Part shown: positions 451-56,580 of the stretch, one piece after another
Position numbering within the stretch: position 1 is the first letter of the stretch
Layout of the letters: each line of letters begins with the position of its first letter
NCBI GenBank assembly: GCA_947630975.1
Contig: CANRJP010000002.1
Coordinates: forward strand, 1,096-65,095
DNA length: 64,000 bases
DNA from: an uncultured Clostridia bacterium
GTDB taxonomy: Bacteria; Bacillota; Clostridia; UMGS1883
Direction of reading: 5' to 3'
Position numbers and translations under genes: made by a program
Notes under the pieces: generated by a model
Databases searched by the model: none
Told to the model about the DNA's origin: nothing
The model's input: only the letters and a program-made list of their open reading frames with translations

Positions 451-455
451 TGTTC

Positions 456-616
456 ATACTAATCCATAATTAAAATCAGACACCGAGCGACGAGAATTTT
501 TCGTGTCAGGCAAGGAAGAGACCGCAGGCAATACTGTATGTATTGTCAAGGCCGATGACGAAGCTTGGCGCGGAAAAGGCCGTCGCAAATGTCTGATTTT
601 AGTTGGGGATTAGTAT
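456..616. repeat. MITE-like repeat family A, full copy 1 (TIR ATACTAATCC...GGATTAGTAT)
   Basis: An almost identical sequence is present in inverted orientation at 6113-6271. The termini form a ~10-bp inverted repeat. There is no ORF inside. Confidence 0.7.
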
Positions 617-945
617 CAGTCCAAAAGCTCCTTTATCTTGTCGAGGAAGGCTTCCTCGCCCCAGGTGTTGATTTTGAAAAATAAAGCCTGACTGCCGCCG
701 GAGGTTATCGCCGACAGGCTTATGGGGCCGTCTCCGTTTTGGAACAGGGTCACGTTCAGGCTTACCCGATTGCCGCCCGTGTAGCTGTAACGCTCGAATA
801 CCCTCACGCTGCACCGGGCGGTTCCGCTCCTGAAATCGCTCGACTCTTCCAGCGAGGCGGTAACGCTTCCGCTTTGGATTCCTTCTTCTATTTTGCTCAA
901 TATCTTGTAAAAATCACCGTTTACCGTGCGCTCGAGCTTAGCCAT
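616..945 (-). CDS. hypothetical small protein (109 aa)
   Basis: ATG at 943-945 is preceded by GGAGG with 8-nt spacing. The stop codon (TGA, complement of 616-618) lies inside the right TIR of repeat A. Confidence 0.5.
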   Translation of the reverse strand: MAKLERTVNGDFYKILSKIEEGIQSGSVTASLEESSDFRSGTARCSVRVFERYSYTGGNRVSLNVTLFQNGDGPISLSAITSGGSQALFFKINTWGEEAFLDKIKELLD

Positions 946-1065
946 GGTTATTTATCCTCCCTTGTTACAATAAATGCTTATTTATTATATCACATTGCCG
1001 AAAATATTGCAACAGTAAAAAAATCGCGTGGGAGCCGGTCCGCGCGATTTTTATTCACAGGGTCA

Positions 1066-1110
1066 TATTAATTAAAATCAGACACCGAGCGGCGCGGCCA
1101 TTTCGCGAAT
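1066..1110. repeat. truncated copy of the repeat family A left end
   Basis: ATTAATTAAAATCAGACACCGAGCG matches the first ~40 bp of copy 1. Confidence 0.5.
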
Positions 1111-1136
1111 TACTGTTTTTTAGACGCAAAAAGCTG

Positions 1137-1165
1137 TTGCTTTTTTATGATAAAGGTGTTATAAT
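1137..1165 (+). promoter_or_regulatory. putative sigma-A promoter (TTGCTT-17-TATAAT)
   Basis: Hexamers read directly from the sequence, 35 bp upstream of the NlpC/P60 start. Confidence 0.35.
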
Positions 1166-1199
1166 ATATAGTGCGATTTTATGTGGAAGGAGAGAGTCC

Positions 1200-2774
1200 A
1201 TGAATTTGAAAAAATTTACCGCGGTAATGGCCGCGGCTGTGAAGCTTTGTCCGGCGGTAATGGCGAACGGGGCCGAGCCGTACTACATATGCGCTTATTA
1301 CGCCGGCGACGGGAGCCTTATTTCCGCCGAAACGGCCGATTCTCAACTGTCTGAGGAACGGCTCGCCGATATTCTCGGCGAGAAAGCCCCCCGGGGTACC
1401 TCGTCGGGCGCCGTGTACCGTTGGAATTCGCTGCTCGAGCCTGTGGCCGAGCCGATAACCGAGGATTTCACCAACAGAGTAGGCGATGACGGCGCGTTCA
1501 GGGCCCCCAACGTTACTCCGGAAATGTGTCGGCTTGATTTCTGGCTGGAAAAGGGAGCCGTTTCCGACGAGGTAATAATGACCGGGGAGGAGATAGCGGC
1601 CTACAACCGGGCGATACTTGACACAAAGGCCACGAACACCAACGATCTTGCCGCCCTGCCGGAGACTTATGACGGGCGGTCGATGGCCGACAGCATGGCG
1701 GGCTTCGAGTCCCCCAAAAACCTCTATATAGACGGTCAGCCGGTGAGCGAGGAGTACTATGAGGCCATAAGAGAAAATATAAGGAACGCCGCCGTCAGCG
1801 AAAGCATGGAGCTGAAATACGGCGTGGCCGTGAACCGAACCGTGATGAAGGCCTATCCCTACGCCGAGTTTTTGTCGGACAGTCCGGACGACCCGGAATG
1901 GGACGATCTTGTCTCCGCTCCGATATGCGTGAACGAACCCTTGGCGCTGTATTTCACTACCGCCGACGGAAAATTCACGCTTGTAAAGTCCCAGTGCTGT
2001 TCGGGCTGGGTTCTCTCGGAGGATATAGCGGCCTGCGCGGACAAGGCCCAATGGCTGGAGGTCACCGCGCCGGAAAAGATTTTGCTGGTGACCGGTGAAA
2101 AGATCTATCTCGAGCCAAGCGCCGACACCGATCTTAACGAGAAAATGCTCACTATGGGCACCGCTTTGGAGCTTGTGACCGACTGGCCCGGCCCGGTGTC
2201 CGGTCGGCTGCCCTGGGACAACTATGTTGTGAAGCTGCCCGCGAGAGATGAGAACGGCGGATACTGTCAGAAGCTGGCTCTGATACCGGCCAACCGTGAC
2301 GTGAACGTGGGCTATCTGCCCTATACAACCGCCAACGTCGCCGCTCAGGCTCTGAAAGCCCTCGGCAACCGTTACGGCTGGGGCGGAATGATGAACTCCA
2401 ACGACTGCTCGTCTTTTGTGCGCGAGGTGTATATGTGCTTCGGCATTATGCTGCCGCGAAACACCACCTGGCAGTCAAAGGTTCCGACGGGAGTTACCGA
2501 ATTGTCGGCCATGACAAACGAGGAAAAAATTGCCTTTCTGACCGGCGCCCCGGCGGGGACGGTATTGATCTTCCCCGGCCATGAGGTGCTCTATTTTGGG
2601 GAGGACGGCGGCTTTTACTACGTCGTAAGCGACGTCAGCTCGCTGGTAAGCCCCGCGTCCCCGGGCGAAGGCATAGTCAAGCCCAGGGGAGTTGTGCTGA
2701 ACGACCTGTCCACTCTGAGGGCGAACGGCACCACATGGCTGGACAATTTGAGTTATGCCGTTGAGGTTAAATAA
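1200..2774 (+). CDS. secreted NlpC/P60 (C40) family cell-wall hydrolase
   Basis: ATG at 1200 after GGAAGGAGAG. N-terminal signal peptide. C-terminal motif GWGGMMNSNDCSSFVREVY...LPRNTTWQ, typical of the NlpC/P60 catalytic Cys region. Confidence 0.75.
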   Translation: MNLKKFTAVMAAAVKLCPAVMANGAEPYYICAYYAGDGSLISAETADSQLSEERLADILGEKAPRGTSSGAVYRWNSLLEPVAEPITEDFTNRVGDDGAFRAPNVTPEMCRLDFWLEKGAVSDEVIMTGEEIAAYNRAILDTKATNTNDLAALPETYDGRSMADSMAGFESPKNLYIDGQPVSEEYYEAIRENIRNAAVSESMELKYGVAVNRTVMKAYPYAEFLSDSPDDPEWDDLVSAPICVNEPLALYFTTADGKFTLVKSQCCSGWVLSEDIAACADKAQWLEVTAPEKILLVTGEKIYLEPSADTDLNEKMLTMGTALELVTDWPGPVSGRLPWDNYVVKLPARDENGGYCQKLALIPANRDVNVGYLPYTTANVAAQALKALGNRYGWGGMMNSNDCSSFVREVYMCFGIMLPRNTTWQSKVPTGVTELSAMTNEEKIAFLTGAPAGTVLIFPGHEVLYFGEDGGFYYVVSDVSSLVSPASPGEGIVKPRGVVLNDLSTLRANGTTWLDNLSYAVEVK

Positions 2775-2804
2775 ACCTATATTTTTATAAGGGAGAGATA
2801 AATC

Positions 2805-4922
2805 ATGAACAAATTGATTAAACGAATTTCCGCGCTTGTTACGGCCGCGTTTGTGGCCGGCGCGGCGATGCCCGCGGCTCTCGCCGCCGACGGAACGGAG
2901 GAAAAAGCCGTTTCACTCCGAATGGCGGCTTACTATGACGAAGCCGGCAGGCTTGTTGGAGTAAAGCGCGTCGGCGAGGGGCTGAATGATGATGAGCTGG
3001 AGGTGCTTGTGGGTCTGTTCGAACCCTCCAACGCCGTAACCGCGAAGGTATTCGCCTGGACGGCGGAGCTTGAACCCGTCGAGGGCAAGGCAAAGACCGT
3101 AGACCTCGGCGGCGACGGCAATTCCGTTGTGATACTCCATACCAACGATATGCACGGCAGCCTTGTTGGCTCAAGCTCCGTTATCGGCAGCGACTATGTG
3201 GCCGCTCTTAAGAAGGCCGAAAACGCCATCCTTGCCGACGGCGGCGACGCAACCCAGGGCGTGGCCCTTGCCTCTCAGTCAAAGGGTATGGACATAATCA
3301 AAATAATGAACGCCGCCGGATATGACGTTATGGCTCTGGGTAATCACGAGTTCGACTACGGCCAGGAGCAGTTGCGTAAGTTCCGTGAGTTGGCGAACTT
3401 CCCGATAATTTCGGCCAATACATATGTCGACGGAAATATCCTCTGCGGAGCCGAGGATAACAACGGCGAAAATGTTATTATTGAGAAAAACGGTATAAAG
3501 GTGGGCATCTTTGCCCTCACCACCCGCTCCACCGCAACCTCCACAAAGCCCGAAAATCTCACGGGCGTGGAGTTCCGCGACGAGATAGCGACCGCGAAGG
3601 AGCAGGTTGAAAAGCTGGACGCCGAGGGAGCCGATGTCATAGTCGCCCTTGTGCACATGGGCATACTGGACGATGCCGCCGAATGTACCAGCCGTGAACT
3701 GGCTCTTGCCCTGAAGGACACAGAGCTGGACGCCATAATTGACGGCCACAGCCACAGCGTTGTCGATGAAGTGGTCGAAGGCACAAACATCGCTCTTGCC
3801 CAGACCGGCACCGGCAGCGCCAATGTGGGCCATATGGAGATAACGGTGGCCGACGACGGAAAGGTTACCGTGGACGAGACCCTTCTGTCCGGAGCTTTCT
3901 TCAACGAATTGACGCCGGATGCGGAGGTGACCGCCGTAATTAACGAGCTGAACGGTGAGCTCAGCGAAACCCTCAAGCAGCCCATCGGCGTTACGGCCAA
4001 CACCCTTTGGGGCGGCTCCGTAAACGGAAAGATTGCCGAGTCCCGTTCCGGCGAGACCAATCTGGGCGACCTTATCTGCGACGCCATGATAGCCGAGGCC
4101 GAGGACATTGTGCCCGCCGACAAGAAGGGTCTGCCCATCGTGGCGATAGAGAATGGCGGAGGCTTCCGCACAGCCATACCTAACGGAGAAATGAACATCG
4201 GCAGTGTTATCAACTGCCTGCCCTTTGCCAACGCGGTAATGACTAAGGAAATAACTCCCGCGGTGCTGTACACCGCTCTCGAGAGCTTTGTTTCCTCCGT
4301 TACGGCCCAAGATAAAGAAACCGGCTTCCTGACGGCATCTTATTCCGGTTCCTTCCCCCAGATAGGCGGTATGAGCTTCGTGTACGACCCCAACGCTGAA
4401 AAGGGCGCTAAAATAACTTCCGTCGCTCTCAACAACGGAACCGCCGTTGACAGAGAGGACGCCGACACAAAGCTCGTGCTTGTATCAAACGATTATGTTA
4501 TCGGCAACGCCGCTTTTGCGGACTGCCCGTTTATTGCCGAGGGCAGCGGCCTTACCGAAAGCGTGCTGGCCTATATCGCGGAGCTTACCGAGAACGGCAA
4601 AAAGCCTCTCGAGCTGCCTGTCGCCGAGGGCCGCATAAAAACGGTGAACCATGACCCGAATCGGAAGTATACGGCTCGGTTCTCCGTAAAGGGCGAAGGT
4701 GTACCCGCCGAGCTCACCGCCATAGTTGACGGAAGCGAAGCATTTACCGGTAAAGTTACCGATGGGGTGCTTGAGCTTGAACTGCCCGACGGCCCCCACG
4801 CCGTAAAGCTCTATGAGGATCAAACCGAGGTATATGTGAACAATTACAGCGGCAACGGCACCGTTGAGGATTACAACGGCTTGCATCTGGGCTGGCCCGA
4901 GTTGGAATACGTCGCCGAATGA
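2805..4922 (+). CDS. bifunctional metallophosphatase / 5'-nucleotidase (UshA-like), secreted
   Basis: Signal peptide. Metallophos motifs VILHTNDMHG and GNHEFDYG. Long 5'-nucleotidase C-terminal domain. Confidence 0.8.
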   Translation: MNKLIKRISALVTAAFVAGAAMPAALAADGTEEKAVSLRMAAYYDEAGRLVGVKRVGEGLNDDELEVLVGLFEPSNAVTAKVFAWTAELEPVEGKAKTVDLGGDGNSVVILHTNDMHGSLVGSSSVIGSDYVAALKKAENAILADGGDATQGVALASQSKGMDIIKIMNAAGYDVMALGNHEFDYGQEQLRKFRELANFPIISANTYVDGNILCGAEDNNGENVIIEKNGIKVGIFALTTRSTATSTKPENLTGVEFRDEIATAKEQVEKLDAEGADVIVALVHMGILDDAAECTSRELALALKDTELDAIIDGHSHSVVDEVVEGTNIALAQTGTGSANVGHMEITVADDGKVTVDETLLSGAFFNELTPDAEVTAVINELNGELSETLKQPIGVTANTLWGGSVNGKIAESRSGETNLGDLICDAMIAEAEDIVPADKKGLPIVAIENGGGFRTAIPNGEMNIGSVINCLPFANAVMTKEITPAVLYTALESFVSSVTAQDKETGFLTASYSGSFPQIGGMSFVYDPNAEKGAKITSVALNNGTAVDREDADTKLVLVSNDYVIGNAAFADCPFIAEGSGLTESVLAYIAELTENGKKPLELPVAEGRIKTVNHDPNRKYTARFSVKGEGVPAELTAIVDGSEAFTGKVTDGVLELELPDGPHAVKLYEDQTEVYVNNYSGNGTVEDYNGLHLGWPELEYVAE

Positions 4923-4950
4923 TATTTAAAATTGAGGAGGTAATATTATT

Positions 4951-5961
4951 ATGGATATAAGCTGGCTGCTTTTGCTTCAACATTTTCGTGAGGCCACCGG
5001 CGGAATTTTCGACAGCTTTTTCGAGGCTGTGACCCGCCTTGGCGAGACCTCGGTAAGCTCGCCGTATTTGCTGTTGGCTCTGGGCCTGGTATATTGGTGC
5101 TATGACAAGCGTCAGGGCATATTTATGATGATGTCCCTGTACACCAACCGCGTTGTCAACGGCTTCGTAAAGATCACCGCCTGTGTTTACCGGCCATGGA
5201 TAAGAGACGCCAGAGTCGTACCCGTGCCGGAAGCCATGGCCGAGGCCACGGGTTACTCCTTCCCCAGCGGTCACGCCGGCAACGCCGCGACGGTCTGGGG
5301 CGGGCTGGCCGTTGGCGAAACATATAACGGAAAGAAAACTCCCCTTTGGGCCAGAATTTTCTTTGTGGTAGTAGTGATTTTGGTGGCCTTCTCCCGAAAT
5401 TATCTGGGCGTACACACTCCCCAGGACGTAATTGTGGCCTTGCTCATTGCCGCCATAGTGCTCTTTGCGGTGAACAAGGTAATGAAGCTGATGGATAAGC
5501 GGCCCGAGGCCGACGTATGGGTGCTTCTGGGCGGGATCGTACTCTGTCTGCTGCTAATAGCCTACGGAGTTCTCAAGCCGCTCAGTACCTACCCGATGGA
5601 CTACGACCAGGCCGGCAAGCTCATAGTCGACCCGGCGAAGATGTCCGTGGACTCCTTTAAAAACGCCGGAATGGGCCTCGGCTTCTTCATAGGCTGGTTC
5701 ATTGAGAGGCGCTTTATCCGCTTCTCCACCGACATCGGCAATACCGAGAAAATTGTGCGCTATCTGTTCTGCGCATTCACCTTCATATTAGTGAATATCC
5801 TTGTGGGCGATATGCTTTCAAAGACTCTCATATCCGCCGGGCTTGCCGAGGGCTTCGCCAAGGCTCTTACCCAGTTTGTCTGCGTATTCTGGTTCGTGGC
5901 CGGCGCCCCCTTTGTGTCGAAAATATTCTCCGGCCTTTCCCGTAAAAAAGCGGAAAAATAA
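4951..5961 (+). CDS. PAP2 superfamily membrane phosphatase
   Basis: PAP2 motif SFPSGHAGNAATVWGG. Multiple hydrophobic TM segments. Confidence 0.7.
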   Translation: MDISWLLLLQHFREATGGIFDSFFEAVTRLGETSVSSPYLLLALGLVYWCYDKRQGIFMMMSLYTNRVVNGFVKITACVYRPWIRDARVVPVPEAMAEATGYSFPSGHAGNAATVWGGLAVGETYNGKKTPLWARIFFVVVVILVAFSRNYLGVHTPQDVIVALLIAAIVLFAVNKVMKLMDKRPEADVWVLLGGIVLCLLLIAYGVLKPLSTYPMDYDQAGKLIVDPAKMSVDSFKNAGMGLGFFIGWFIERRFIRFSTDIGNTEKIVRYLFCAFTFILVNILVGDMLSKTLISAGLAEGFAKALTQFVCVFWFVAGAPFVSKIFSGLSRKKAEK

Positions 5962-6029
5962 GCGCGAAGCCTGCTGACCCTTCTTTAACGGCGTCGGCCC
6001 GCGGCAGAGCAAAGAAGTGAATTTTGGAT

Positions 6030-6068
6030 AAACCGTCCCGCGTATCGCCGCTGGACGGTTTATTTTTC
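6030..6068 (+). terminator. intrinsic terminator (AAACCGTCC...GGACGGTTT + T-run)
   Basis: Hairpin followed by TTATTTTT, downstream of the PAP2 gene. Confidence 0.4.
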
Positions 6069-6112
6069 AAACATATATTGACAAGCTCCACGATTAAAGC
6101 TATAATTAAGTT

Positions 6113-6271
6113 ATACTAATCCCAACTAAAATCATCAATTTGGTGCGGGCCTTTTCGCGCCGTACAGCGTCATCGGTCTTGCCAATACATACAGTATTGC
6201 CTGCGGCCTCTTCCTTGTCCGGCACAAAAAATCCTCGCCCCTCGGTTGACGCTTTTAATCGGGATTAGTAT
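6113..6271. repeat. MITE-like repeat family A, full copy 2 (inverted relative to copy 1)
   Basis: Reverse complement of 456-616 with few mismatches. Same TIRs. Confidence 0.7.
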
Positions 6272-6444
6272 AAGACAATTTCAAACATTTTAATTGCCAA
6301 AATTCAACATTTGTTAACAAAAAAAACAAATATTGAAAATAATATTGTGCTAAATTCATAATATCAATAAAAAATGATTTATGACGGCATTTACCCGAGC
6401 ATGAATAACGGAGGTAAACAATATATTGAAGGGGGATAACAAAG

Positions 6445-7158
6445 ATGAAAAAGACTCAGAAAATACTGGTGGTCGACGACGACGCCAATATCTGTGAGCT
6501 GCTCAGGCTCTATCTTAAAAAGGAGGGCTTTGAAACGGTGATCTGCTCCAACGGTGAAAAGGCGCTTGAGGAGTTCGCCGCCGAGCAGCCCGACCTGGCC
6601 ATACTCGACATAATGATGCCGAAGGTTGACGGCATGACGGTTTGCCGCGAGATACGAAAGACCAGCAATATGCCCATCATTATGCTTACAGCCAAGGGCG
6701 AGACCTTCGATAAGGTGCTGGGGCTTGAGCTGGGAGCCGACGACTATATGGTCAAGCCCTTCGAGGGCAAGGAGCTGGTGGCCCGTGTCAAGGCCGTCCT
6801 TCGCCGAAGCGAGGTTCAGAAGGAGGAGAGCGAGGAAAAGATCATACGTTATCCAAATATCGTTATCAACCTCACCAACTACGAGCTCACGCTTGGCGAC
6901 AAGTCCTTTGACATACCGCCGAAGGAGCTGGAGCTGCTGTACTTCCTGGCAAGTCACCCCAACCGGGTGTTCACAAGGGAACAGCTCCTTGAAGATGTGT
7001 GGGGTTTTGACTATTACGGCGACTCGCGGACGGTGGACGTCCACGTAAAGCGGCTCAGGGAAAAGCTGGAGGGCTACGACGACAGTTGGTCCCTCAAGAC
7101 CGTTTGGGGCGTGGGCTACAAGTTCGAGGTCAAGCCGGAGGTGAAGCCTGTTGGGTAA
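6445..7158 (+). CDS. OmpR-family response regulator (CssR-like)
   Basis: Receiver motifs (VVDDD, D at ILDIMMP). C-terminal winged-helix segment (VWGVGYKF). Confidence 0.85.
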   Translation: MKKTQKILVVDDDANICELLRLYLKKEGFETVICSNGEKALEEFAAEQPDLAILDIMMPKVDGMTVCREIRKTSNMPIIMLTAKGETFDKVLGLELGADDYMVKPFEGKELVARVKAVLRRSEVQKEESEEKIIRYPNIVINLTNYELTLGDKSFDIPPKELELLYFLASHPNRVFTREQLLEDVWGFDYYGDSRTVDVHVKRLREKLEGYDDSWSLKTVWGVGYKFEVKPEVKPVG

Positions 7159-8590
7159 AACTCTGTTCACCCGTGTGTTCCTGACGACGGTGCTGGTTAT
7201 TCTTCTGTCCTGCATACTGTCGGCCTCCCTGCTTTACAGTCAGCTTGGCAACTATATAATCAGAACGGAGAGCGAGGAGCTGGAGGACGTGGCGGAGCGT
7301 GTGGCGGAGATAACGGGCCAGTTTATTGACGACAGCTCGGCCCAAAAGTGGCTTTTCAGGCACATCGAGACCCAGAGCTTGAACAACCGCTGCACCATAC
7401 TTGTTATGAATACCAACGCCGAAATAGTTACCATGGCCGGCGGCAGCGAATTCATAGACGTGGACAAACTGGGCAAGGGCCTCATAAGCAAGGCGCTGAA
7501 GGGCGAAAGCACCAGCGGAATAGTCAACGACGAGGCCGGCGTCGCCAAAAACACCTTCGTCTGTACGGAACCGATTTACACCGAATACAACGGCGGTTCC
7601 CTGATACTGGGAGCGGTGGCGGTCTGCAAGCCCATGCCCCAGATACAGCAGGCCCGGAACGAGGTTATGGGGCTGCTGATAACCTCCCAGTCCATCGCGC
7701 TGATGATAGCCTTTCTGTTCAGCTTCCTGCTGGCAAGGAGCATTTCCCGCCCCATAAGCCAGCTCAATTCCGCGGCAAAGGCCGTGGCCTCCGGCGACTT
7801 CACTAAAAAAATAGAGCGCCGCTCCGAGGACGAGATAGGCGAGCTTATATCCAGCTTCAACTACATGACCGGCGCCCTTAAGGAAATAGACGAGGCCAGG
7901 AGCAGCTTCGTCAGCAACGTCGCTCACGAGCTGAGAACCCCGATGACGATAATCAGCGGCTTTGTGGAGGGCATAATCGACGGAACCATAAGCGAGGACG
8001 AGCGGGATAAGTATCTGAATATAGTGCTCAGCGAGTCCCGGCGCCTTGGCCGCCTCGTCAACGATCTTCTCCAGACCAGCCGCCTCGAAAGCGGCACCGC
8101 CAAGCTGGTGATGAAACAGATAGACATCAACGAAATGCTGCGGAAGGGCGTCATAAGCTATGAAAACGCCATCACGGAGAAAAATCTGGACGTGGAGGTG
8201 GAGTTCAAGCGGGAAAACTGCTACGCCGTAGGCGATGAGGACTCCATTTACCGCGTGGTAATGAATCTGCTTGACAACGCAATAAAATACGCTCCCGAGG
8301 GCGGACACATAAAGGTGAAAACCTCCGAGACCGTGCGCAAGGTGGAGGTCAGCATCGAAAACAGCGGCGAGGGCATCAGCGAAAGAGATCTGGCTCATAT
8401 TTGGGAAAGATTTTATAAGACTGACAAGAGCCGCGGCATGGATAAGCGGGGCGTCGGTCTGGGACTTTATCTGGTAAAGACCATAATCAACCAGCACAAC
8501 AACCGCATTTGGGCCGAGAGCAAGGAGGGTGAGTATACGAGGTTTACCTTCACTCTCGATAAGCCCGGCATTACCGGTGTGAAAAACTAA
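7151..8590 (+). CDS. sensor histidine kinase (HAMP-HisKA-HATPase), CssS-like
   Basis: TTG start overlapping the response-regulator stop. H-box VAHELRTPMT. N/G boxes (NLLDNAIKY, GVGLGL). Two TM segments. Confidence 0.85.
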   Translation: MGKTLFTRVFLTTVLVILLSCILSASLLYSQLGNYIIRTESEELEDVAERVAEITGQFIDDSSAQKWLFRHIETQSLNNRCTILVMNTNAEIVTMAGGSEFIDVDKLGKGLISKALKGESTSGIVNDEAGVAKNTFVCTEPIYTEYNGGSLILGAVAVCKPMPQIQQARNEVMGLLITSQSIALMIAFLFSFLLARSISRPISQLNSAAKAVASGDFTKKIERRSEDEIGELISSFNYMTGALKEIDEARSSFVSNVAHELRTPMTIISGFVEGIIDGTISEDERDKYLNIVLSESRRLGRLVNDLLQTSRLESGTAKLVMKQIDINEMLRKGVISYENAITEKNLDVEVEFKRENCYAVGDEDSIYRVVMNLLDNAIKYAPEGGHIKVKTSETVRKVEVSIENSGEGISERDLAHIWERFYKTDKSRGMDKRGVGLGLYLVKTIINQHNNRIWAESKEGEYTRFTFTLDKPGITGVKN

Positions 8591-8600
8591 ACCGTATTAA

Positions 8601-8780
8601 GGCAATACCGCACAAAGACCGCTTTAGAGCTTTGTACCCATCTTGCTTGCATCTTTTCCGACGTATCTTACGAAAACTCCTTGAAATACGACAGTATTCC
8701 TTCGTCGTTTTCGTAATTCCGTCAAAAAATCTGCGGCGCAATATGGGCACAATCTCTGTGCGGTATTACCTTAAAAAGTA
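8601..8780. repeat. 180-bp segment bounded by a 17-bp perfect inverted repeat (GGCAATACCGCACAAAG / CTCTGTGCGGTATTACC)
   Basis: Seen directly. It contains an inner IR CTTACGAAAAC / GTTTTCGTAA. Confidence 0.5.
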
Positions 8781-18973: not shown

Positions 18974-19008
18974 TATTTAAGGGGCTGTTTAATGGAGCTG
19001 TAGTTTTT

Positions 19009-19192
19009 ATACTAATCCCAATTAAAAGCGTCTAATAAAGCCTTCTCCTTGAGGAGAAGGTGGCACGAAGTGCCGGATGAGGTGTAGGATGCGAAGCATC
19101 CGTTATACGTTTACAGTTACACTAACGCCGCCTGTGGCGGCTACACCTCATCAGTCGGCTTCGCCGACAGCTTCCCCTCGAGGGGAAGCCTT
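19009..19192. repeat. structured repeat element B sharing the 5' terminus (TACTAATCCCAATTAAAAG) with family A
   Basis: Terminus matches family A. Dense hairpins: CCTTCTCC/GGAGAAGG, GGCAC-GAA-GTGCC, GATGAGGTGTAG...CTACACCTCATC, CTTCCCCTC/GAGGGGAAG. Confidence 0.5.
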
Positions 19193-19290
19193 TTTAATCT
19201 GTCATTGTTACCGTAATAAATTCGCATATTTATGTTTTTAATTTGAGGTTAGTATTATACCACTCTTTCATTCTATTTTGTAGTTCTTAT
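19193..19290. repeat. 85-bp flank module (ATCTGTCATTGTTACCGTAA...AGTATTATACNACTCTT), copy 1
   Basis: Also present at 23222-23300, directly after copy 1 of the 530-bp element. Confidence 0.5.
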
Positions 19291-19376: not shown

Positions 19377-22300
19377 ATGAAGAAATTTTGCGGCGTTATT
19401 TTGACGCTTTGTCTTATACTTTCCTGCGTTACCGCTTTTGGTGCGGGACTCCGAGTTGAGTGGGGCGGCGCTGTTCTTGCTCCCGGCGAGGTGAGCGTTC
19501 GCCTGTTCGGAGCGGACGACGGACTGAGGGCAATTTTGGCCGTATACGGCCCCGACGGCCTTGCCGCCGTGAAAACCGTCGAGGTGGAGAATGCCAGGGC
19601 CGAGCTTGAACTCCTTTTGGGAGATATTGGCCCGGAAAGTCGGGCGAAGCTCTTTCTTTGGGATTACGAAAAGCTGGAGCCGGTCCGCGGAACGCTTTCC
19701 ACCCTTACGCCCGAGGGCGTAATTGACGGCGCGGCCTACAGCGGGCCGGCGCTAGGTTCGGTGAGCGGCACAGTGAAGAACTCCGACGGAAATCCCCTTG
19801 AAAATGTGGATATAAGCCTTTCCGTCGAAGGGTATACGACCAAAACCGCATCTGACGGAACATACGGTTTTACCAATGTGCCTGTGGGCGACTACACCGT
19901 GACCGCCGCCGCTCCCGCCGACATGGAGCCGGTTGGGGAAAATACTTTGACGGTTACTGTTGAGGAGGACAAGACCGCCGCCGCAGATTTCACGTTTAAG
20001 GCGATAATACATTACGGCTCGGTGAGCGGCACGGTGAAGGATTCCGACGGAACTCCCCTTGAAAATGTGGAAATAAGCCTTTCCGCCGAAGGATATACGA
20101 CCAAAACCGCCTCCGACGGCACATACGGCTTTACCGGTGTGCCTGTGGGCGACTACACCGTGACCGCCGCCGCTCCCGCCGATATGGAGCCGGTGGGGGA
20201 AAATACTTTGACGGTTACGGTGGAGGAGGACAAGACCGCCGCCGCAGATTTCACGTTTAAGGCGACAGTACATTACGGCTCGGTGAGCGGCACAGTAAAG
20301 GATTCCGACGGAACGCCTCTTGAAAATGTGGAGGTGAGCCTTTCCGCCGAAGGATATACGACCAAAACCGCCTCCGACGGCACATACGGCTTTACCGGTG
20401 TGCCTGTGGGCGACTACACCGTGACCGCCGCCGCTCCCGCCGATATGGAGCCGGTGGGGGAAAATACTTTGACGGTTACGGTGGAGGAGGACAAGACCGC
20501 CGCCGCAGATTTCACGTTTAAGGCGACAGTACATTACGGCTCGGTGAGCGGCACGGTAAAGGATTCCGACGGAATTCCTTTTGAAAATGTGGAAATAAGC
20601 CTTTCCGCCGAAGGGTATACGACCAAAACCGCATCTGACGGCACATACGGCTTTGATAATGTGCCTGTGGGCGAATACACCGTGACCGCCGCGGCTCCCG
20701 CCGACATGGAGCCGGTGGGAGAAGCCTCCGTCAATGTTACCGTGAAGGAAAATCAGACTTCCACGGCGGACTTTGTTTTCGGCCCCAAGGAGCCGGAGCC
20801 TGAAAAGTGGTACAGCGACAACCAAAAAGTAAATAACGGCTCCAGCATCGGCTATCACAGCTTCGAGGCTCTCGCCGGAGATTACGAGGTTGAGTTTGAG
20901 CTGACCGTTGTCAAAAAAGGCAATAACGCCGTAATGCTCCATGACAGCTCCAAAAATCCTTTGGACTACGAAGGATCTTCTGTAATACTTCTGTTTAACG
21001 GTAATTATTTTTCCGTCAGAAGCGGGGACGGATCGGGAGGTTATACGGCCGAAGCGGTAAATCTCTGTGCCGTAAAGGAAAATGAAACTTATAAAATAAA
21101 GATTTGCGGCGATGCGGCTATGAACACCTATACCGTTTCCGTCACCGGTAAGGACGGCCAAACGCATACCAGCGATATTATGCGTGCCTGGACAAACGGA
21201 GATAAACTGGACTCTCTGGCCTTAATCAGCAACGATCACAATACGGTGGTGAACGGAGACGAATGTTCCGATTATTTGTTTTATGTAACCGGCTGCACGG
21301 CTGAACATATAATTGGCGACCCTGTATATGACGGCTTTGCCGGTCGGTATTTCGCCATAAAGGCCGGAGGAAAGTACGTTCGCGGCAACAACGGCAAGCT
21401 CTCCGCCGACTGGAACAGTGTAAGCGACGACAGCGCCAAGTTCCTGCCCCGCGATATGGGCGACGGCAGCTTTGCTTTCATGTGCCTTTCCTCCAAGAGG
21501 AGGATAACCGCGTCGGACAGCGGGCAGCTTTCCAGCGCGGACTATGACTGTAACGGCGACGGTCAGCACTGGCTCCTTGAGAAGGGCCCGAGTTACAGCG
21601 ACGAGGCTCCCGCCTACTATCTCAAGAGCCTTAAAAATCAAAAATACATAGGCTTAGTAGACGGATTTTTGTCCGCCGTTGACGAGGCCGATAAGGTGGA
21701 GCTCATCTTTGAGCCGCTGAACGACGACAGCCCGCTCTATCTCATTTCCGCATCTCCGGCATATGCGCGTTTGAGCAAAAAGCAGAGGGAACGCATCGAG
21801 ATGATTTACGAAACCGTGGCAGGCGACGTGTTCGACCGCTACAGCAACGATATAATCAGCGCGGAGTGGACGCCCCGGCTCCGAATAGACAATATCTATA
21901 AAGAGGCAAAGGATACTGATGAGGAGCTTTACAAACGGCTCGAGAAATTCCTTAAGGGCGACGATGCCTACCTTATAACCGACGGCGCCATAGCCAACAG
22001 CTATTCCGTTACCACGCCGCTCCCCGGCACCGGCGGCGAGACCTGCGGGCTGGACGGCGGCGTCGCCGGCAGTTATGACTTCTGGCGGGGTACCAAGCTT
22101 CAAGGGACTAAGTATAAGCTCACGGTATACACCGCCGCCGGCAGTGTACAGCAAACCGTTGACCTCTACGTCCAGAACGACGGTACGGCCCGAACCAACG
22201 AACAAAGATTTGTGGAGATTTTCAATAAAATACCCTATATTTACAGAAAGAACATCACCAGCGTCAAGATAAGGAGCGACACCGCCAACAGCTACAACTG

Positions 22301-22673: not shown

Positions 22674-22679
22674 AAATGA

Positions 22680-23224
22680 GGGGCCGTAAAAAAATGGCGC
22701 AGAACGTTCAAGGGCATAAAGTCTTTATTTAAGGCAAATTGTAGAACGTTATATAATCGTTCAGTAAAAACAAAATAGTGAATTAATGTAGAAAATTCGC
22801 TCTAACGAGCGAATTTTTTCATTTTATGCCCTTGAACTACGAACGAAAATCACCCTCGGCGGCGTCGGGGCAAAGCCCGTCTATGCGACGACATTTTTTA
22901 CAAAAATGCCGTCGCGCGAGGACTTGCCCCTCCTTCCTCGCAAAAGGTCACGCGGCGCTCCGACTATTCGGGCGGATAAGCCGCCCTCATTACGCCTGCG
23001 CTTGCTACCAACCTTTTGCGAGTTTGATAGCACCACTCCCCACAAACAACAAAGTTGTTTGTGGGGAAAAGGAGGAGCAGCCAAACGAGCCAAACGGTGA
23101 CTTTTTTGCGAAGCATAAAAAGTCGCCGCAAGCGAAGGGAGGCTTGCGACGACGCCGTTCTGCACGATTTTTTCGACCGGCCCCGTGCCTCCATGTTACA
23201 GAGCGAGTTTTTTTTACAACCCCC
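22680..23224. mobile_element. ~530-bp TIR-bounded non-autonomous repeat element, copy 1
   Basis: TIRs GGGGCCGTAAAAAAA / TTTTTTTTACAACCCC. Internal perfect palindrome CCCCACAAACAAC-AAAG-TTGTTTGTGGGG. Nested IR GTTCAAGGGCATAAA / TTTATGCCCTTGAAC. Two more copies elsewhere in the window. Confidence 0.7.
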
Positions 23225-30636: not shown

Positions 30637-31674
30637 TTGAAAATAGAGGAAATTCTTGAAAAACTGGACGCCCCCTTGGGCGTCAGCGGCAGTGAGGAGG
30701 CCGTCGGGAGCGCGGTCAAGGACTTGCTGGCACCCTGCTGCCAGACCGTGACCGAGGACGTTTTAGGCAACGTAACGGGCTGGTACCGCTGCGGTCGGGA
30801 AAACGCTCCCGTAGTGATGATAGAGGCCCATCAGGACGAGCTGGGCCTCATGGTAAGCGGCATAACCGACGAGGGGAGCCTGCTCTTCTGCGAGATAGGC
30901 GGCTTTGACCCCAAGACCCTTCCCGGAACCGAGGTCACCGTCCACTGCGAGACCGGGAACTATTTTGGCGTGATAGGCGCCAAGCCTCCCCATCTGGTGA
31001 AGGATGCGGCCAAGGCCCTTGCCGTTGAAAACATGGCCGTGGACATCGGCTTTAAAAAGGAGCAAACCGAAAAAATCGTTCGGGTGGGGGACATAATCAC
31101 CCTCAACACCGGCTATACAAAGCTGGCGGGCTCCGCCGTCGCCGGACGCTGCATCGATGACCGGGGCGGCCTAGCGGCGGTGATACGCACCATGGAGCTC
31201 ATACAGAAATACCGGCTGTCCTGCGACGTGGCGGCCGTGGCCACGGTTCAGGAGGAGCTGGGCCTTCGCGGGGCGAGGACGGCTGCGGCCCAGCTTGTGC
31301 CCGACGCCGCCATCGCCGTAGATGTCTGCCACGGCACAAGCCCCGGCGTCAGCGACAACGCCTTCCCCTTGGGCAAAGGCCCCGTCGTCAGCGTTGGCCC
31401 CAACCTCCATCCGAAGCTGACCCGCCAGCTCCTCGACCGGGCAAAGGAAGCCGGCATCGAGGTTCAGATAGACGTGGACAGCGGCGACACCGGCACCGAC
31501 GCCTGGGAAATACAGGTGGCCGGGGCGGGAGTCCCCACGGCCCTGCTCTCCATACCTCTGCGCTATATGCACGCCAATTACGAGGTGGGGGACAGCCGCG
31601 ACATTGAAAATACGGCCCGGCTCATGGCGGCCTGGCTTTTGAGCTACAAAGGCGGTGACGATCTGTGCTTCTGA
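30637..31674 (+). CDS. M42 family metallopeptidase (paralog 1)
   Basis: TTG start after AGGAGGG. Conserved HxDExG-type and ...VQEEVGLRGA motifs of the M42/FrvX family. Confidence 0.8.
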   Translation: MKIEEILEKLDAPLGVSGSEEAVGSAVKDLLAPCCQTVTEDVLGNVTGWYRCGRENAPVVMIEAHQDELGLMVSGITDEGSLLFCEIGGFDPKTLPGTEVTVHCETGNYFGVIGAKPPHLVKDAAKALAVENMAVDIGFKKEQTEKIVRVGDIITLNTGYTKLAGSAVAGRCIDDRGGLAAVIRTMELIQKYRLSCDVAAVATVQEELGLRGARTAAAQLVPDAAIAVDVCHGTSPGVSDNAFPLGKGPVVSVGPNLHPKLTRQLLDRAKEAGIEVQIDVDSGDTGTDAWEIQVAGAGVPTALLSIPLRYMHANYEVGDSRDIENTARLMAAWLLSYKGGDDLCF

Positions 31675-32672
31675 AAGAACTGTGCCAACGCTCCGGCCCC
31701 TCCGGTTGGGAGGACGACATAAGGAGCTTTATCCTCGGTCAAATAAAGGCCGACGAGATAACCGTGGACACCATGGGCAACATCATCGCCCATAAGCTCG
31801 GCGGCGGCAAAAAGGTGATGGTGGCCGCCCACATGGACGAGGTGGGCTTCATCGTCAGCGGCTTCACCGACGAGGGCTTTGTGAGGTTCAAAACCGTCGG
31901 CGGCATACTCACCACCGTTCTTGTGAGCAAAAAGGTGTTGCTGGGCGAAAAAAAGGTGCCCGGCATAATCAGCGCCAAGGCCGTACACCTACAAAAGCGT
32001 GAGGAACGGGAAAAGCTCATTCCCATGAGTGAGCTTTATATCGACATCGGCGCGAAGAATAAGGAGGAGGCCCAAAACCTTCTGAATTTGGGCGACTACG
32101 GAGTTTTCGCCGGCGAGTACACGGAGTTCGGCGATGGCCTTGTGAAGAGCAAGGCCCTTGACGACCGGGTGGGCTGCGCCGCCCTCATCGAGCTGATGAA
32201 AAACGACTACGCCAACGATATGTACTTTGTGTTCACCGTTCAGGAGGAGGTCGGCCTTCGCGGCGCTATCATAGCGGCCAACCGCATCAGACCCGACTAC
32301 GCCCTTGTGATCGAGGGCACCACCTGCAGCGACGTTTACGGCACAAAGCCCCACGAAACCGTCACCAATCTTGGCGGCGGAGCGGTCATGACCGCCATGG
32401 ACAGGGCCGCCGTCAGCGACCGGCGCTATTTTGAGATGATAAAAAGTCTGGCGGAAAGGGAAAACATTCCCCTTCAAATCAAGCGCACAAGCAGCGGCGG
32501 CACCGACGCCGGCAGCATCCAGCGCAGCGGCGGCGGAGTAAAGACGGCGGTTCTCGCCGTGCCCTGCCGCTATATCCATTCCCCCGTCAGCGTAATGAGC
32601 AAAAGCGACTTTGACAGCGTCTGCCGCCTCAGCGCGGCGGTACTGAAGGAGCTGGAAAGGAGAGAACTGTAA
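31665..32672 (+). CDS. M42 family metallopeptidase (paralog 2)
   Basis: AAHMDEVGF and FTVQEEVGLRGA motifs. Confidence 0.8.
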   Translation: MLLKELCQRSGPSGWEDDIRSFILGQIKADEITVDTMGNIIAHKLGGGKKVMVAAHMDEVGFIVSGFTDEGFVRFKTVGGILTTVLVSKKVLLGEKKVPGIISAKAVHLQKREEREKLIPMSELYIDIGAKNKEEAQNLLNLGDYGVFAGEYTEFGDGLVKSKALDDRVGCAALIELMKNDYANDMYFVFTVQEEVGLRGAIIAANRIRPDYALVIEGTTCSDVYGTKPHETVTNLGGGAVMTAMDRAAVSDRRYFEMIKSLAERENIPLQIKRTSSGGTDAGSIQRSGGGVKTAVLAVPCRYIHSPVSVMSKSDFDSVCRLSAAVLKELERREL

Positions 32673-33646
32673 TGGAGCTTTTGAAAAAACTCAACGAGTG
32701 TTGGTCTCCCTCGGGCCGTGAGGACAGCATAAGGAACCTCATTGCCGCCGAGCTGGAGCCCTATGTCACCGACGTATACACCGACCCCATGGGCAACCTC
32801 ATCTGCCGCAAAAAGGGCAACGGACGGCGGCTCATGTTCGCCGCCCACATGGACGAGATAGGCTTCATGGTGACGAACATCGACGACAGCGGCTTCCTCC
32901 GTTTCACCAACGTGGGCGGCATCTCGGCCCACAACTGCGTAAATCGCGGCGTTGTCTTTGAAAACGGCACGGCGGGCGTTATTTCATACGAAAAAACCGT
33001 CAAGGATCTCAACCTTGACAAAATGTATATCGACATCGGCGCGGCTGACAGGGCCGAGGCCGAGAGCAAGGTCAGCGTGGGCGATATGGCCTGCTGCAAC
33101 GAGGGCTTCACCCTTATGGGTTCTTGCGCCGCTGCCAAATCCATGGACGACCGCGTGGGCTGCTACGCCCTGATAAAGGCCGTTCAGCGGGCGGCCTCCA
33201 ACAAAAACGACATTTACGCCGTGTTCACCGTTCAGGAGGAGCTGGGCCTTCGTGGAGCCAAAACCGCCTCCTTCAACGTGGAGCCCGACCTTGGCATAGC
33301 CATCGACGTTTCCATGGTGGGCGACACTCCCGAAAGCGCCAGGCGCAGCCTCGCGCTGGGCAAGGGCCCGGGCATAAAGCTGAAGGACGCCTCCTTTATA
33401 ATACACCCGAAGGCCCGTGAGTTCATGCTTCAGGCCGCCCGTGCGGCGGAAATACCCTTCCAGCTTGAGGCGGCGGCCTACGGCGGCACCGACGCGGGAG
33501 CCATACACCTCAACGGCGGCGGAGTTCCGGCGGGAACGGTTTCGATACCCACCCGCTACATCCATTCGCCCCGAGAGGTGGTCAATCTCGCCGACGTGGA
33601 AAATACCGTCAAACTTGTGACAAAAATGATAGAAGTTGGTATATGA
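32672..33646 (+). CDS. M42 family metallopeptidase (paralog 3)
   Basis: AAHMDEIGF and FTVQEELGLRGA motifs. Confidence 0.8.
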   Translation: MELLKKLNECWSPSGREDSIRNLIAAELEPYVTDVYTDPMGNLICRKKGNGRRLMFAAHMDEIGFMVTNIDDSGFLRFTNVGGISAHNCVNRGVVFENGTAGVISYEKTVKDLNLDKMYIDIGAADRAEAESKVSVGDMACCNEGFTLMGSCAAAKSMDDRVGCYALIKAVQRAASNKNDIYAVFTVQEELGLRGAKTASFNVEPDLGIAIDVSMVGDTPESARRSLALGKGPGIKLKDASFIIHPKAREFMLQAARAAEIPFQLEAAAYGGTDAGAIHLNGGGVPAGTVSIPTRYIHSPREVVNLADVENTVKLVTKMIEVGI

Positions 33647-34560: not shown

Positions 34561-34605
34561 AACGCCGAACAAGGCTCTCGACAAGTCTTTGTTCGGCATT
34601 ATTTT
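34561..34605 (+). terminator. intrinsic terminator (GCCGAACAA...TTGTTCGGC + ATTATTTT)
   Basis: Hairpin with a T-rich tail after hslO. Confidence 0.4.
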
Positions 34606-34660
34606 CAAATTAAAAACATCAATTCGGTGCGAGCCTTTTCACACCGTGCGGCGTCACATC
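34603..34660. repeat. internal-segment copy of repeat family A
   Basis: CATCAATTCGGTGCGAGCCTTTTCACACCGTGCGGCGTCACATCC matches the interior of 6113-6271. Confidence 0.45.
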
Positions 34661-38045: not shown

Positions 38046-38552
38046 GGGGCTGTAAAAAAATCGTGCAGAACGGCGTCGTCGCAAGCCTTCCTTCGCTTGC
38101 GGCGACTTTTTATGCTTCGCAAAAAAGTCACCGTTTGGCTCGTTCGGCTGCTCCTCCTTTTCCCCACAAACAACAAAGTTGTTTGTGGGGAGTGGTGCTG
38201 TCAAACTCGCAAAAGGTTTGTAGCAAGCGCAGGCGTAATGAGGGCGGCTTATCCGCCCGAATAGCCGGAGCGCCGCGTGACCTTTTGCGAAGAAGGAGGG
38301 GCAAGCTCTCGTGCGACGGCATTTTTGTAAAAAAATGTGGTCGCATAGACGGGCTTTGCCCCGACGCCGCCGAGCGGTGATTTTCGTTCGTAGTTCAGGG
38401 CATAATTTAAAAAGAAAAACCGTCTTTTCGCAAGAAAAAGGCGGTTTTTCCACATCAATTCACAGCTTTGTTTCTTTTTCCGGATTTATCAACACATAAA
38501 TTTACCTTAAGGCTTTTAGCCCTTGAACAATCTGCGCCATTTTTTCAGCCCC
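38046..38552. mobile_element. ~530-bp TIR-bounded repeat element, copy 2 (inverted; ~45-bp internal deletion)
   Basis: Reverse-complement match to 22680-23224. TIR GGGGCTGTAAAAAAA. Lacks the CTGACTACATAATCTGGAGGCACGGGGGCCGGTCGAAA segment present in copies 1 and 3. Confidence 0.7.
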
Positions 38553-40808: not shown

Positions 40809-40844
40809 ATATGTGTATTATATGTGTATTATATGTGAAACTGA

Positions 40845-56563: not shown

Positions 56564-56580
56564 ATCAAGGAGTGAAAATT

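Follow-up and report, generated by a model that had tools for sequence, protein, structure and literature searches.

Repeats in a 64,000-nt stretch of DNA from an uncultured Clostridia bacterium (the window) are best explained as a non-autonomous DNA transposon (MITE) that is present in several copies and inserts at T-N-A, a reading that we regard as highly probable. A first-pass annotation had described them as a MITE-like family, and this assignment was borne out by terminal inverted repeats (TIRs), a TNA target duplication, dispersed copies, an empty paralogous site and nested insertions. At ~160 bp the element is too small for a transposase gene, and several dispersed copies per genome were present in many genomes. 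In searches with a structure-aware model, the conserved core of this Clostridial element appears to match the 'characteristic core' of Correia elements.

Elements and fragments in the window

Using more than 115 further genome copies, the ends of the element were redefined as TACTAATCC…GGATTAGTA, which gives a length of ~158-163 bp. The terminal 11-mer, allowing at most one mismatch, occurred seven times in the window compared to 0.72 expected, and none of 100 shuffles contained as many. Copies A and B had been placed at 456-616 and 6113-6271; both copies are real, but their true ends are TAC…GTA at 457-615 and 6114-6270, with the TNA lying outside (Table 1). Their opposite orientation was confirmed, whereas the description as near-perfect reverse complements was not, as they are 79% complementary over 139 nt. 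Similarly, both copies are bordered by ATACTAATCC / GGATTAGTAT, inverted repeats that were also found on at least 115 genome copies, but the restriction of these TIRs to ~10 bp did not hold; the whole element is one hairpin.

Table 1. Coordinates of the elements, fragments and adjoining features in the window
Feature	Position	Strand	Basis or remark
Left target duplication of copy A, TCA	454..456	.	Sequence and family-wide TNA rule
Copy A, full element TACTAATCC…GGATTAGTA, core 499-575	457..615	+ (CAAGG, better-folding strand)	R1, R2, fold
Right target duplication of copy A, TCA, = minus-strand TGA stop of DUF6054 gene (619-945)	616..618	.	
5'-arm fragment, matching copy A positions 12-37 at 25/26	1069..1094	+	Without terminus
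Consensus sigma-70-type promoter, TTGACA / 17 nt / TATAAT, 12/12	6078..6106	+	In flanking DNA, outside the element
Copy B with flanks, element 6114-6270, core 6153-6229	6111..6273	CAAGG strand on -	R1, R2, folds
Fourth element, 170-bp hairpin 8601-8770, core 8654-8729, flanks TTAA/TTAA	8597..8774	-	R1, R2, fold
Copy C, 246 bp (19010-19255), perfect TTA/TTA duplication	19007..19258	+	R1 17.7 bits, E 0.021
Decayed fragment, matching copy B plus-strand positions 12-60 at 41/49	34608..34656	+	Without intact terminus

Two models were used, a full-element model (R1) and a structure-aware model of the 76-nt core trained solely on Oscillospiraceae sequences (R2). Copy A scored 134.7 bits with R1 (E 3e-30) and its core 65.4 bits with R2; its predicted RNA fold was -78.6 kcal/mol (z -10.8) on the CAAGG strand compared to -53.7 on the opposite strand. 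The TAA stop codon (448-450) of a plus-strand gene sits 3 nt before the left TCA (454-456) of this copy. Copy B, which has a PAP2-family gene on one side and a two-component operon on the other, scored 127 bits on the minus strand and 41.6 on the plus strand with R1, and 64.1 bits with R2. Its folds were -69.9 (CAAGG strand) and -51.2 kcal/mol, and its flanks differ at the middle base (TTA at 6111-6113, TAA at 6271-6273). Transcription from the consensus promoter is predicted to start at ~6113, which is also where copy B has its left end.

A fourth related element (8601-8770) was absent from the first-pass annotation. Its termini (GGTAATACCGCACA…) are unlike those of copies A and B but its core is the same, with scores of 40.6 bits for R1 (E 8e-8) and 38 bits for R2 (E 5e-8) and a fold of -89.4 kcal/mol (z -12.9). 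The stop codon of a histidine-kinase gene is situated 6 nt before the flanked element. In copy C the family left end is retained and the right end (GAGGTTAGTA) is degenerate; between them lies an unrelated series of G+C-rich hairpins, and the core is missing. A structured element sharing the start of the family had been noted at 19009-19192; 26 nt are indeed shared with copy B at 96%, but the element extends to 19255. One pair of termini enclosing several unrelated interiors was seen across the family. Truncated copies reported at 1066-1110 and 34603-34660 were recovered as the two fragments in Table 1, the second with an alignment score of 58 compared to a shuffle maximum of 24. A minus-strand ORF has its stop codon right next to this second fragment. 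The GGTGCGGGCCTTTTCGCGCC segment, previously taken as the core, turned out to be merely part of one variable arm.

Distribution, target duplication and mobility

A genome search with the pattern ATACTAATCC-N125-155-GGATTAGTAT matched at least 115 loci. Nearly all of the loci listed belonged to Oscillospiraceae, Ruminococcus or Clostridia MAGs, together with Huintestinicola butyrica, and many genomes among these matches carried several copies each. Further copies with imperfect ends were identified in the same loci with R1. The element is widespread in Oscillospiraceae/'Ruminococcus' genomes from rumen and gut.

Inspection of the flanks for target-site duplications, as suggested by the first-pass annotation, revealed a 3-bp direct repeat, TNA, around the element that was perfect in 96 of the 116 copies among the matches listed. 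Within this set T occupied position -2 in 110 copies and A position +2 in 111, while the middle base was identical on the left and right in 103. The perfect duplications were TTA (45), TAA (31), TCA (12) and TGA (8). A filled site at L046 reads …TATC[TAA]TAC…GTA[TAA]GGTTTCC…, and its paralogue at L065 is uninterrupted with a single TAA (…TATC[TAA]GGTTTCC…). Nested insertions were found at L050 and L111. The empty paralogous site and the nested insertions show that the element transposes and hence that the MITE reading holds; a search for an empty site corresponding to the window's own copies found none. Of 90 cases, 43 had convergent genes on either side of the copy and only 8 had divergent genes. 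Orientation bias was not observed relative to genes (13 vs 15 and 17 vs 22), nor relative to replication direction using GC-skew or gene-majority proxies.

Stop codon of the DUF6054 gene

The stop codon of the 109-aa DUF6054 gene had been assigned to the right TIR of copy A, suggesting insertion into the coding 3' end of this gene. Neither proposal was upheld: the stop at 616-618 consists of the right-hand duplicate of the target, which overlaps the TIR as first noted by only 1 nt, and the target TCA (TGA on the minus strand) was duplicated with the gene left untruncated. Comparison with homologues showed a normal C-terminus (…KELLD in both). Because the stop trinucleotide itself was duplicated as the target, the gene keeps its own stop codon and normal C-terminus.

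Each TNA is TAA or TGA on one or the other strand. Coincidences with stop codons were found for 20 of 90 copies compared to 14.3 expected from random intergenic TNA sites (p ~0.045), and stop-codon use across the family is close to chance. For annotation, a 'stop codon inside a repeat' should be treated with caution as a by-product of TNA targeting.

A full-length hairpin with a conserved apical core

The class of element to which copies A and B belong forms one long hairpin over its full length. The arms are almost entirely different between subfamilies, yet pairing is retained: 92.9% of cells were paired compared to 69.5% in shuffles and 35-43% when the partners were slid, and compensatory changes were present in 32 of 44 pairs. 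The covariation score of 0.63 (vs 0.195) was matched by none of 500 shuffles. One strand folds better, with G·T outnumbering A·C 105 to 14 in counts that come from related sequences, and the CAAGG strand was the more stable one in all 31 non-redundant elements. Part of this asymmetry comes from the purine-rich core and not from the arms. Rare variants within resident copies were mostly pair-breaking. The conserved core occupies the apical ~75 nt and consists of YRAGG, 7-8 nt, CGCAG, a short covarying hairpin, CAAGG, 6-8 nt and ACGMAG; reading individual sequences by eye, the folded core would contain two tandem G·A / A·G motifs around the short helix. Rfam contained no family matching the element. 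The only match in the window was a cobalamin riboswitch elsewhere, and around copy B only noise matches were obtained (E 0.2 or worse).

Strong covariation, the G·U excess with its one-strand folding preference, a conserved core that is not Watson-Crick and a perfect promoter with its predicted start at the end of copy B are all features that could point to multi-copy structured small-RNA genes, or to cis-acting RNA modules retained because they function as RNA, rather than to transposons. However, TNA duplications, the empty site and nested insertions are marks of transposition, and an RNA started at the promoter next to copy B would be of the weaker-folding strand. The lack of orientation bias relative to genes, of a terminator after the elements and of an Rfam match, as well as the largely pair-breaking nature of rare variants among resident copies, also argue against such genes or modules, which we consider very unlikely; an RNA role may exist on top of mobility. 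Also relevant to the hairpin is movement as single-stranded DNA by an HUH enzyme (RAYT or IS200-IS605-type), as for a REPIN-like palindrome. The strand-specific constraint would suit a folded single strand, no DDE partner was found, and the conserved C-GNA-G motifs (CGCAG, CGAAG) resemble very stable DNA mini-hairpin loops. HUH enzymes leave no target duplication, however, whereas here 3 bp are duplicated and their middle base varies, and neither a recurrent neighbour gene nor an orientation bias by the replication proxies was found; this origin is most improbable. REPINs resemble the Clostridial element in being short hairpin repeats with paired arms and many copies per genome, but they are RAYT-linked and lack a target duplication (bioRxiv 10.1101/2021.07.10.451892), whereas the element described here has the TNA and no associated gene was found.

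Relationship to Correia elements and ERIC

Correia elements (CREE / NEMIS) were the first bacterial MITEs described. They are small and non-autonomous, carry TIRs and a 'characteristic core' that has a direction, and have no known mobilising enzyme; they alter expression of neighbouring genes in Neisseria, and their mode of mobilisation is undetermined (PMC2649163). RNase III cleavage, an IHF site and promoters created on insertion have also been described (PMC2649163, PMC10969869). A 2011 review found no similarity among the MITE cores of different bacteria (PMC3184786). In 190 kb of N. gonorrhoeae DNA, of which Correia elements make up ~1%, the best eight R2 matches all fell inside Correia elements, with modest individual scores (29.9-13.8 bits) and rough E-values. 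This link needs the structure-aware model, as a sequence-only profile of the core (nhmmer) matched neither Correia nor ERIC elements. In the R2-Correia alignment CAAGG, CCGCAG, the apical hairpin, GGCAAGG and AACG agree; the matched positions are those conserved motifs that stay unpaired, and both their order and their strand agree. R2 also identified an element in Cupriavidus metallidurans (37.8 bits, E 6e-8).

The same core was found with other termini, at 8654-8729 in the window and at L090, L011 and L025, and on elements with other target duplications. Its carriers have the ends TACTAAT with TNA, GAGCCTG with TA, and GGGCATC and GGTAATACC with TTAA, to which the Correia ends with TA and the Cupriavidus element are added. 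Correia and Clostridial elements are alike in being small palindromes (about 105-157 bp) with a tiny T…A-type duplication and a mostly intergenic location. They differ in their ends, which in CREE are the 26-bp Correia inverted repeat TATAGTGGATTAA… (PMC5039591) compared to TACTAATCC… here, in their duplication (TA in the gonococcal copy read, 3-bp TNA here), in the longer and hypervariable Clostridial arms, and in their hosts, Neisseria on the one hand and anaerobic Bacillota on the other.

Different termini (TACTAATCC vs the Correia TAGTGGATTAA), duplications and host phyla are what would be expected if the element were an ordinary MITE of its own lineage that resembled Correia elements through convergence or chance, without a common origin or core function. 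The failure of the sequence-only profile to match Correia elements, and of the models to match ERIC, another palindromic MITE, fits this explanation as well. It is less easily reconciled with the confinement of the best eight gonococcal matches to Correia elements, with the agreement of unpaired motifs in order and strand, or with intermediates such as the Cupriavidus element and the core on three other Clostridial end types, and we consider it unlikely. A tentative proposal, which we put forward with little confidence, is that the ~75-nt core is an ancient single-strand (RNA or DNA) module that has spread across phyla on mini-transposons with differing ends and duplications; by eye, the module would comprise the two tandem G·A motifs around the covarying helix and the apical hairpin. 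Conceivably, though this too is doubtful, the core is needed for propagation because a conserved host factor, or an unrecognised mobilising enzyme, docks there. If true, such docking would account for the failure to identify the enzyme that mobilises Correia elements.

ERIC likewise is an imperfect palindrome over its whole length (~127 bp), intergenic and of unknown transposase. The ERIC copy examined has the same TAC…GTA ends but is flanked by TA, and by eye only the short strings GGAAGGCGAC and AACGCAGAC are common to both. E. coli ERIC (L126) was matched by neither R1, R2 nor nhmmer.

Putative mobilising enzyme and predicted effects on neighbouring genes

No transposase was found between ends of the same type within 4 kb of 115 copies or in the window from 1 to 8.6 kb, and no neighbour gene recurred except common ABC/AraC paralogues; MAG assemblies usually lose IS copies. 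PIF/Harbinger elements typically duplicate TWA, and related groups TNA (PMC4482050). Such duplications are a known product of IS5/PIF-Harbinger-type enzymes. Because of the TNA duplication we infer an IS5/PIF-Harbinger-type enzyme, a putative class taken from the type of duplication only. The PIF/Harbinger-IS5 (PHIS) DDE transposons and their Tourist-type MITEs have a comparable 3-bp AT-rich duplication (TTA and TAA make up 79% of the perfect ones here), but neither a transposase nor an autonomous copy was found in this case. The ends of the element start with TAC, compared to the GG or GAG usual for IS5-family ends in ISfinder.

A DDE transposase acting in trans would cut TNA with a 3-nt stagger. 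The core and strand-specific pairing would be needed in single-stranded form (RNA or DNA) by the propagating lineage, a requirement that would not apply to each resident copy. Copy A would have placed a 159-nt hairpin between convergent genes formerly 3 nt apart, and copy B would have introduced one where transcription from a strong promoter is predicted to begin, ahead of the two-component operon. The 8601-8770 element lies downstream of that operon. These three elements would be predicted to add strong stem-loops to mRNAs.

Significance

Gut and rumen Clostridia with hundreds of elements sharing this core offer a large comparative set with hypervariable arms, several end types and a clean duplication. 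This set can be used to define the constrained parts of the core and to seek the enzyme in complete genomes, and through the Clostridial copies the single-strand hypothesis becomes testable. The family also accounts for a common class of intergenic hairpins in Oscillospiraceae annotation.

Ends, target duplication and distribution of the element

Two inverted elements of about 160 bp, copies A and B, had been described in the first-pass annotation as near-perfect reverse complements belonging to a MITE-like family. Taken as 456-616 and 6113-6271, both start with ATACTAATCC and end with GGATTAGTAT. They do lie in opposite orientation, but they are only 79% complementary over 139 nt, and we therefore regard them as related rather than near-perfect copies. 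The 11-mer ATACTAATCCC, allowing at most one mismatch, occurs seven times in the window versus 0.72 expected, a count that no shuffle reached. Two truncated copies noted earlier are real as well. An Rfam search identified no family matching the elements. The coordinates of these and other features are listed in the table.

Elements and other features of the window. The boundaries of copies A and B follow the TNA rule of the family.
Feature	Position	Strand	Description
Copy A	457-615		TCA at 454-456 and 616-618
DUF6054 gene	619-945	minus	stop codon TGA at 616-618
Fragment matching copy A	1069-1094		25/26 identical to copy A
Promoter	6078-6106		sigma-70-type, 12/12 consensus; predicted start coincides with left end of copy B
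Copy B	6114-6270		flanks TTA / TAA, unlike at the middle base
Fourth element	8601-8770	minus	170-bp hairpin, -89.4 kcal/mol, z -12.9; termini GGTAATACCGCACA…; TTAA flanks
Copy C (composite)	19009-19255		degenerate right end, perfect TTA/TTA duplication, unrelated interior
Tandem repeat	19755-20837		261-bp unit, four copies, 70-92% identical; probably repeated domain of a surface protein
Separate ~500-bp repeat family	22677-23214, 38055-38545, 56046-56567		three copies, 96% over 280 nt; perfect palindrome TCCCCACAAACAACAAAGTTGTTTGTGGGGA; presumably the 'first' MITE-like family of the first-pass annotation
Paralogous genes	30800-33550		three genes at ~1 kb spacing (repeat families D5, D8, D9)
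Fragment matching copy B	34608-34656		41/49 identical to copy B; score 58 vs shuffle maximum of 24
Cobalamin riboswitch	40837-41039	plus	122 bits

The pattern ATACTAATCC-N125-155-GGATTAGTAT was scanned over one genome per species and returned at least 115 further loci. Nearly all of the loci among the matches listed were in MAGs of Oscillospiraceae, 'Ruminococcus' or Clostridia from rumen and gut, together with the cultured Huintestinicola butyrica, and several genomes carried 5-11 loci each. The flanks of the copies listed are regular. Two positions ahead of the element the base is T in 110/116, two positions past it the base is A in 111/116, and the middle flank base is the same on both sides in 103/116. 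On this basis the element proper is TACTAATCC…GGATTAGTA with a duplicated T-N-A target. This 3-bp direct repeat is perfect in 96/116 of the copies listed (TTA 45, TAA 31, TCA 12 and TGA 8).

A filled and an empty site were found within a single MAG, RUG14402. Another palindromic repeat, CGTAGGGACGAGCATTGCTCGTCC…GGACGACCAATGGTCGTCCCTACGG, is interrupted at locus L046 (3090-3400; …TATC[TAA]TAC…GTA[TAA]GGTTTCC…), and its paralogue at locus L065 is intact (7100-7240; …TATC[TAA]GGTTTCC…). Two nested insertions were also identified, one into a TAA within the terminus of another element (L050) and one inside a different element (L111), and several unrelated interiors were found between identical termini. 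The filled and empty sites, the nested insertions and the varied interiors within one type of termini show that these elements insert. Among the matches listed, 43/90 copies lie between convergent genes and 8/90 between divergent genes. Dispersed copies, target duplications, evidence of insertion and intergenic placement are hallmarks of MITEs, and the MITE-like assignment was thus right in outline.

For copies A and B, no empty site was present in the metagenome contigs searched; other contigs encoding the same proteins carry the insertions. Plasmid and phage collections contained nothing matching copy A. A single viral-contig match was rejected as a family member, as it had unequal flanks, lacked the core and looks like chance. 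Elements of 161-162 bp with ATACTAATCC termini and TTA duplications were found in two Pseudoalteromonas species and a Saprospiraceae MAG (L049 5299-5460, L101 3526-3687 and L071 1752-1912), and therefore this type of end crosses phyla. The core was not significant in these copies despite the shared ends and duplication.

Copy C, the composite element, has an interior (19040-19192) made up of consecutive G+C-rich hairpins, and C-GAA-G loops occur in several of them (GGCACGAAGTGCC, GGATGCGAAGCATCC). A search with GGCACGAAGTGCC found no second occurrence of this hairpin, either in the window or among the fetched loci.

The stop codon next to copy A

The first-pass annotation placed the stop codon of the 109-aa minus-strand gene within a terminal repeat of copy A and suggested insertion into the 3' end of that gene. 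Instead, the target duplication explains the stop codon, which is the right-hand one of the two TCA copies. Before insertion, the gap between the two convergent genes at this position was 3 nt (TAA tgt TCA). The DUF6054 protein ends in …KELLD, as do its homologues of 108-109 aa, which rules out truncation or extension of the gene; its C-terminus is normal. The DUF6054 homologues sit in other gene contexts, and hence they offered no orthologous empty site for comparison.

A preference for stop codons was also considered. Duplications coincide with the stops of long ORFs in 20/90 cases versus 14.3 expected for random intergenic TNA (p ~0.045, with crude gene calls), which we do not take as a real preference. 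As any TNA reads TAA or TGA on one or the other strand, the coincidence with stop codons is a by-product of the target preference.

A strand-specific hairpin with covarying arms

Copy A folds as a single long hairpin with a predicted energy of -78.6 kcal/mol on the plus strand and -53.7 kcal/mol on the minus strand, whereas copy B gives -69.9 kcal/mol on the minus strand and -51.2 kcal/mol on the plus strand. The same strand of the element therefore folds far better in both copies, with z-scores down to -10.8. An alignment of 31 non-redundant members of the class that includes copies A and B (A2) revealed that the arms of different subfamilies have almost no common sequence and that pairing is nonetheless kept. 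Paired cells amounted to 92.9%, compared to 69.5% in shuffles and 35-43% with slid partners, and compensatory changes were found in 32/44 pairs. The covariation score was 0.63 vs 0.195, with 0/500 shuffles reaching this value.

Wobble pairs are asymmetric, with G·T in 105 cells and A·C in 14 (29 vs 10 pair columns). The strand carrying CAAGG is the more stable one in 31/31 members, using either RNA parameters (-77.0 vs -61.7 kcal/mol) or DNA parameters (-40.7 vs -33.1 kcal/mol). At the apex lies a conserved core of about 75 nt, consisting of YRAGG, 7-8 nt, CGCAG, a short covarying hairpin, CAAGG, 6-8 nt and ACGMAG. Our reading of individual sequences suggests that the core would form two tandem G·A / A·G motifs around a 4-bp covarying helix, an arrangement that makes sense only for a single-stranded nucleic acid. 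The single strand under constraint may be either RNA or DNA, between which sequence does not discriminate.

Orientation of the copies was not significantly biased relative to neighbouring genes (13 vs 15 and 17 vs 22), to the gene-majority strand (31 vs 30) or to GC skew (23 vs 38, p 0.07). Of the rare variants inside subfamilies, most disrupt pairing (30, as opposed to 16 wobble and 9 compensated changes). As there is no orientation bias and the variants mostly disrupt pairing, the constraint seems to act on the propagating lineage rather than on each resident copy.

The core is a separable module of the Correia type

We built two covariance models, R1 for the whole element and R2 for the 76-nt core only, the latter solely from Oscillospiraceae sequences. 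Within the window R1 recovered copy A (134.7 bits), copy B (127 bits), the composite element (17.7 bits) and a fourth element with other termini (8599-8772, minus strand, 40.6 bits, E 8e-8), which R2 scored at 38 bits. Among the fetched loci, R2 also matched an element with GAGCCTGTTCACA termini and TA flanks, one with GGGCATCTCTAAAA termini and TTAA flanks, and a core in G+C-rich DNA without recognisable termini (L084 1159-1251, 41.8 bits). As the same core occurs on several end types, termini and core are separable modules. The apical part of the L084 core, GCAGACAGTAC…GTACGGCAAG, closely resembles the core of Correia elements, which are MITEs of Neisseria.

The resemblance of the Clostridial core to that of Correia elements was tested with a 106-nt Correia sequence. 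This query matched gonococcal DNA at 99.1%, and its core part matched the Cupriavidus metallidurans CH34 megaplasmid at 85%. The gonococcal DNA belongs to record NZ_CP119140.1 of the plasmid collection PLSDB (L128, L130-L132) and is labelled a plasmid there; at 2.17 Mb, with Correia elements and mtrA, it appears to be a gonococcal chromosome. When R2 was run on 190 kb of N. gonorrhoeae DNA, the eight best matches (29.9 to 13.8 bits) all fell within Correia elements, which make up ~1% of that DNA; the best match outside them was a generic hairpin at 12.3 bits. The unpaired motifs align in the order CAAGG, CCGCAG, apical hairpin, GGCAAGG and AACG, and the alignment falls on the strand that agrees with the known direction of the core in Correia elements (PMC2649163). 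In the Cupriavidus megaplasmid (L129 1470-1578), R2 identified a ~110-bp hairpin element with AGAGGCGCTATCAAAATGA termini and a core nearly identical to that of Correia elements (37.8 bits, E 6e-8). Only the covariance models detected the link; a sequence-only profile detected nothing in Correia elements.

The Clostridial and Correia elements have a common type of core, whereas their termini differ and Correia elements duplicate TA rather than TNA. The Clostridial element is thus distinct from Correia elements and carries a core of the Correia type. Homology to ERIC, the enterobacterial palindromic repeat, had been suspected by eye and was not supported, as both R1 and R2 missed a genuine E. 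coli ERIC. According to a 2011 review, no similarity exists between the cores of MITEs from Neisseria, E. coli and Anabaena (PMC3184786), and our literature searches with the termini and 'Correia-like' found no earlier description.

Mobilization and predicted effects on transcripts

The element would be moved in trans by a DDE transposase. An enzyme of the IS5 / PIF-Harbinger type is inferred because TWA/TNA duplications are known to arise from such enzymes (PMC4482050). A search of the 115 copies listed for an autonomous partner revealed no pair of same-type ends separated by 0.3-4 kb and flanked by matching duplications. No transposase-like family recurred near these copies and positions 1-8.6 kb of the window contained no such gene, which is weak evidence because IS copies are often missing from MAG assemblies.

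With copy A in place, the two convergent transcripts would each end in a 159-nt stem-loop. The consensus promoter lies upstream of a response-regulator / histidine-kinase operon, and copy B seems to have inserted right where transcription of this operon is predicted to start; its mRNA would then begin with the copy B hairpin. The fourth element lies 3' of the same operon, 6 nt beyond the histidine-kinase gene. Correia elements are known to be processed by RNase III and to influence expression (PMC2649163, PMC10969869). The effects of the window copies on transcripts are predicted ones.

Our results establish insertion at TNA with a 3-bp duplication, many copies and a conserved hairpin structure that includes a core of the Correia type. 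Two properties make these repeats more than just another MITE family: the hairpin is strand-specific and strongly covarying, and its modular core is common to Correia elements and to elements with other termini.
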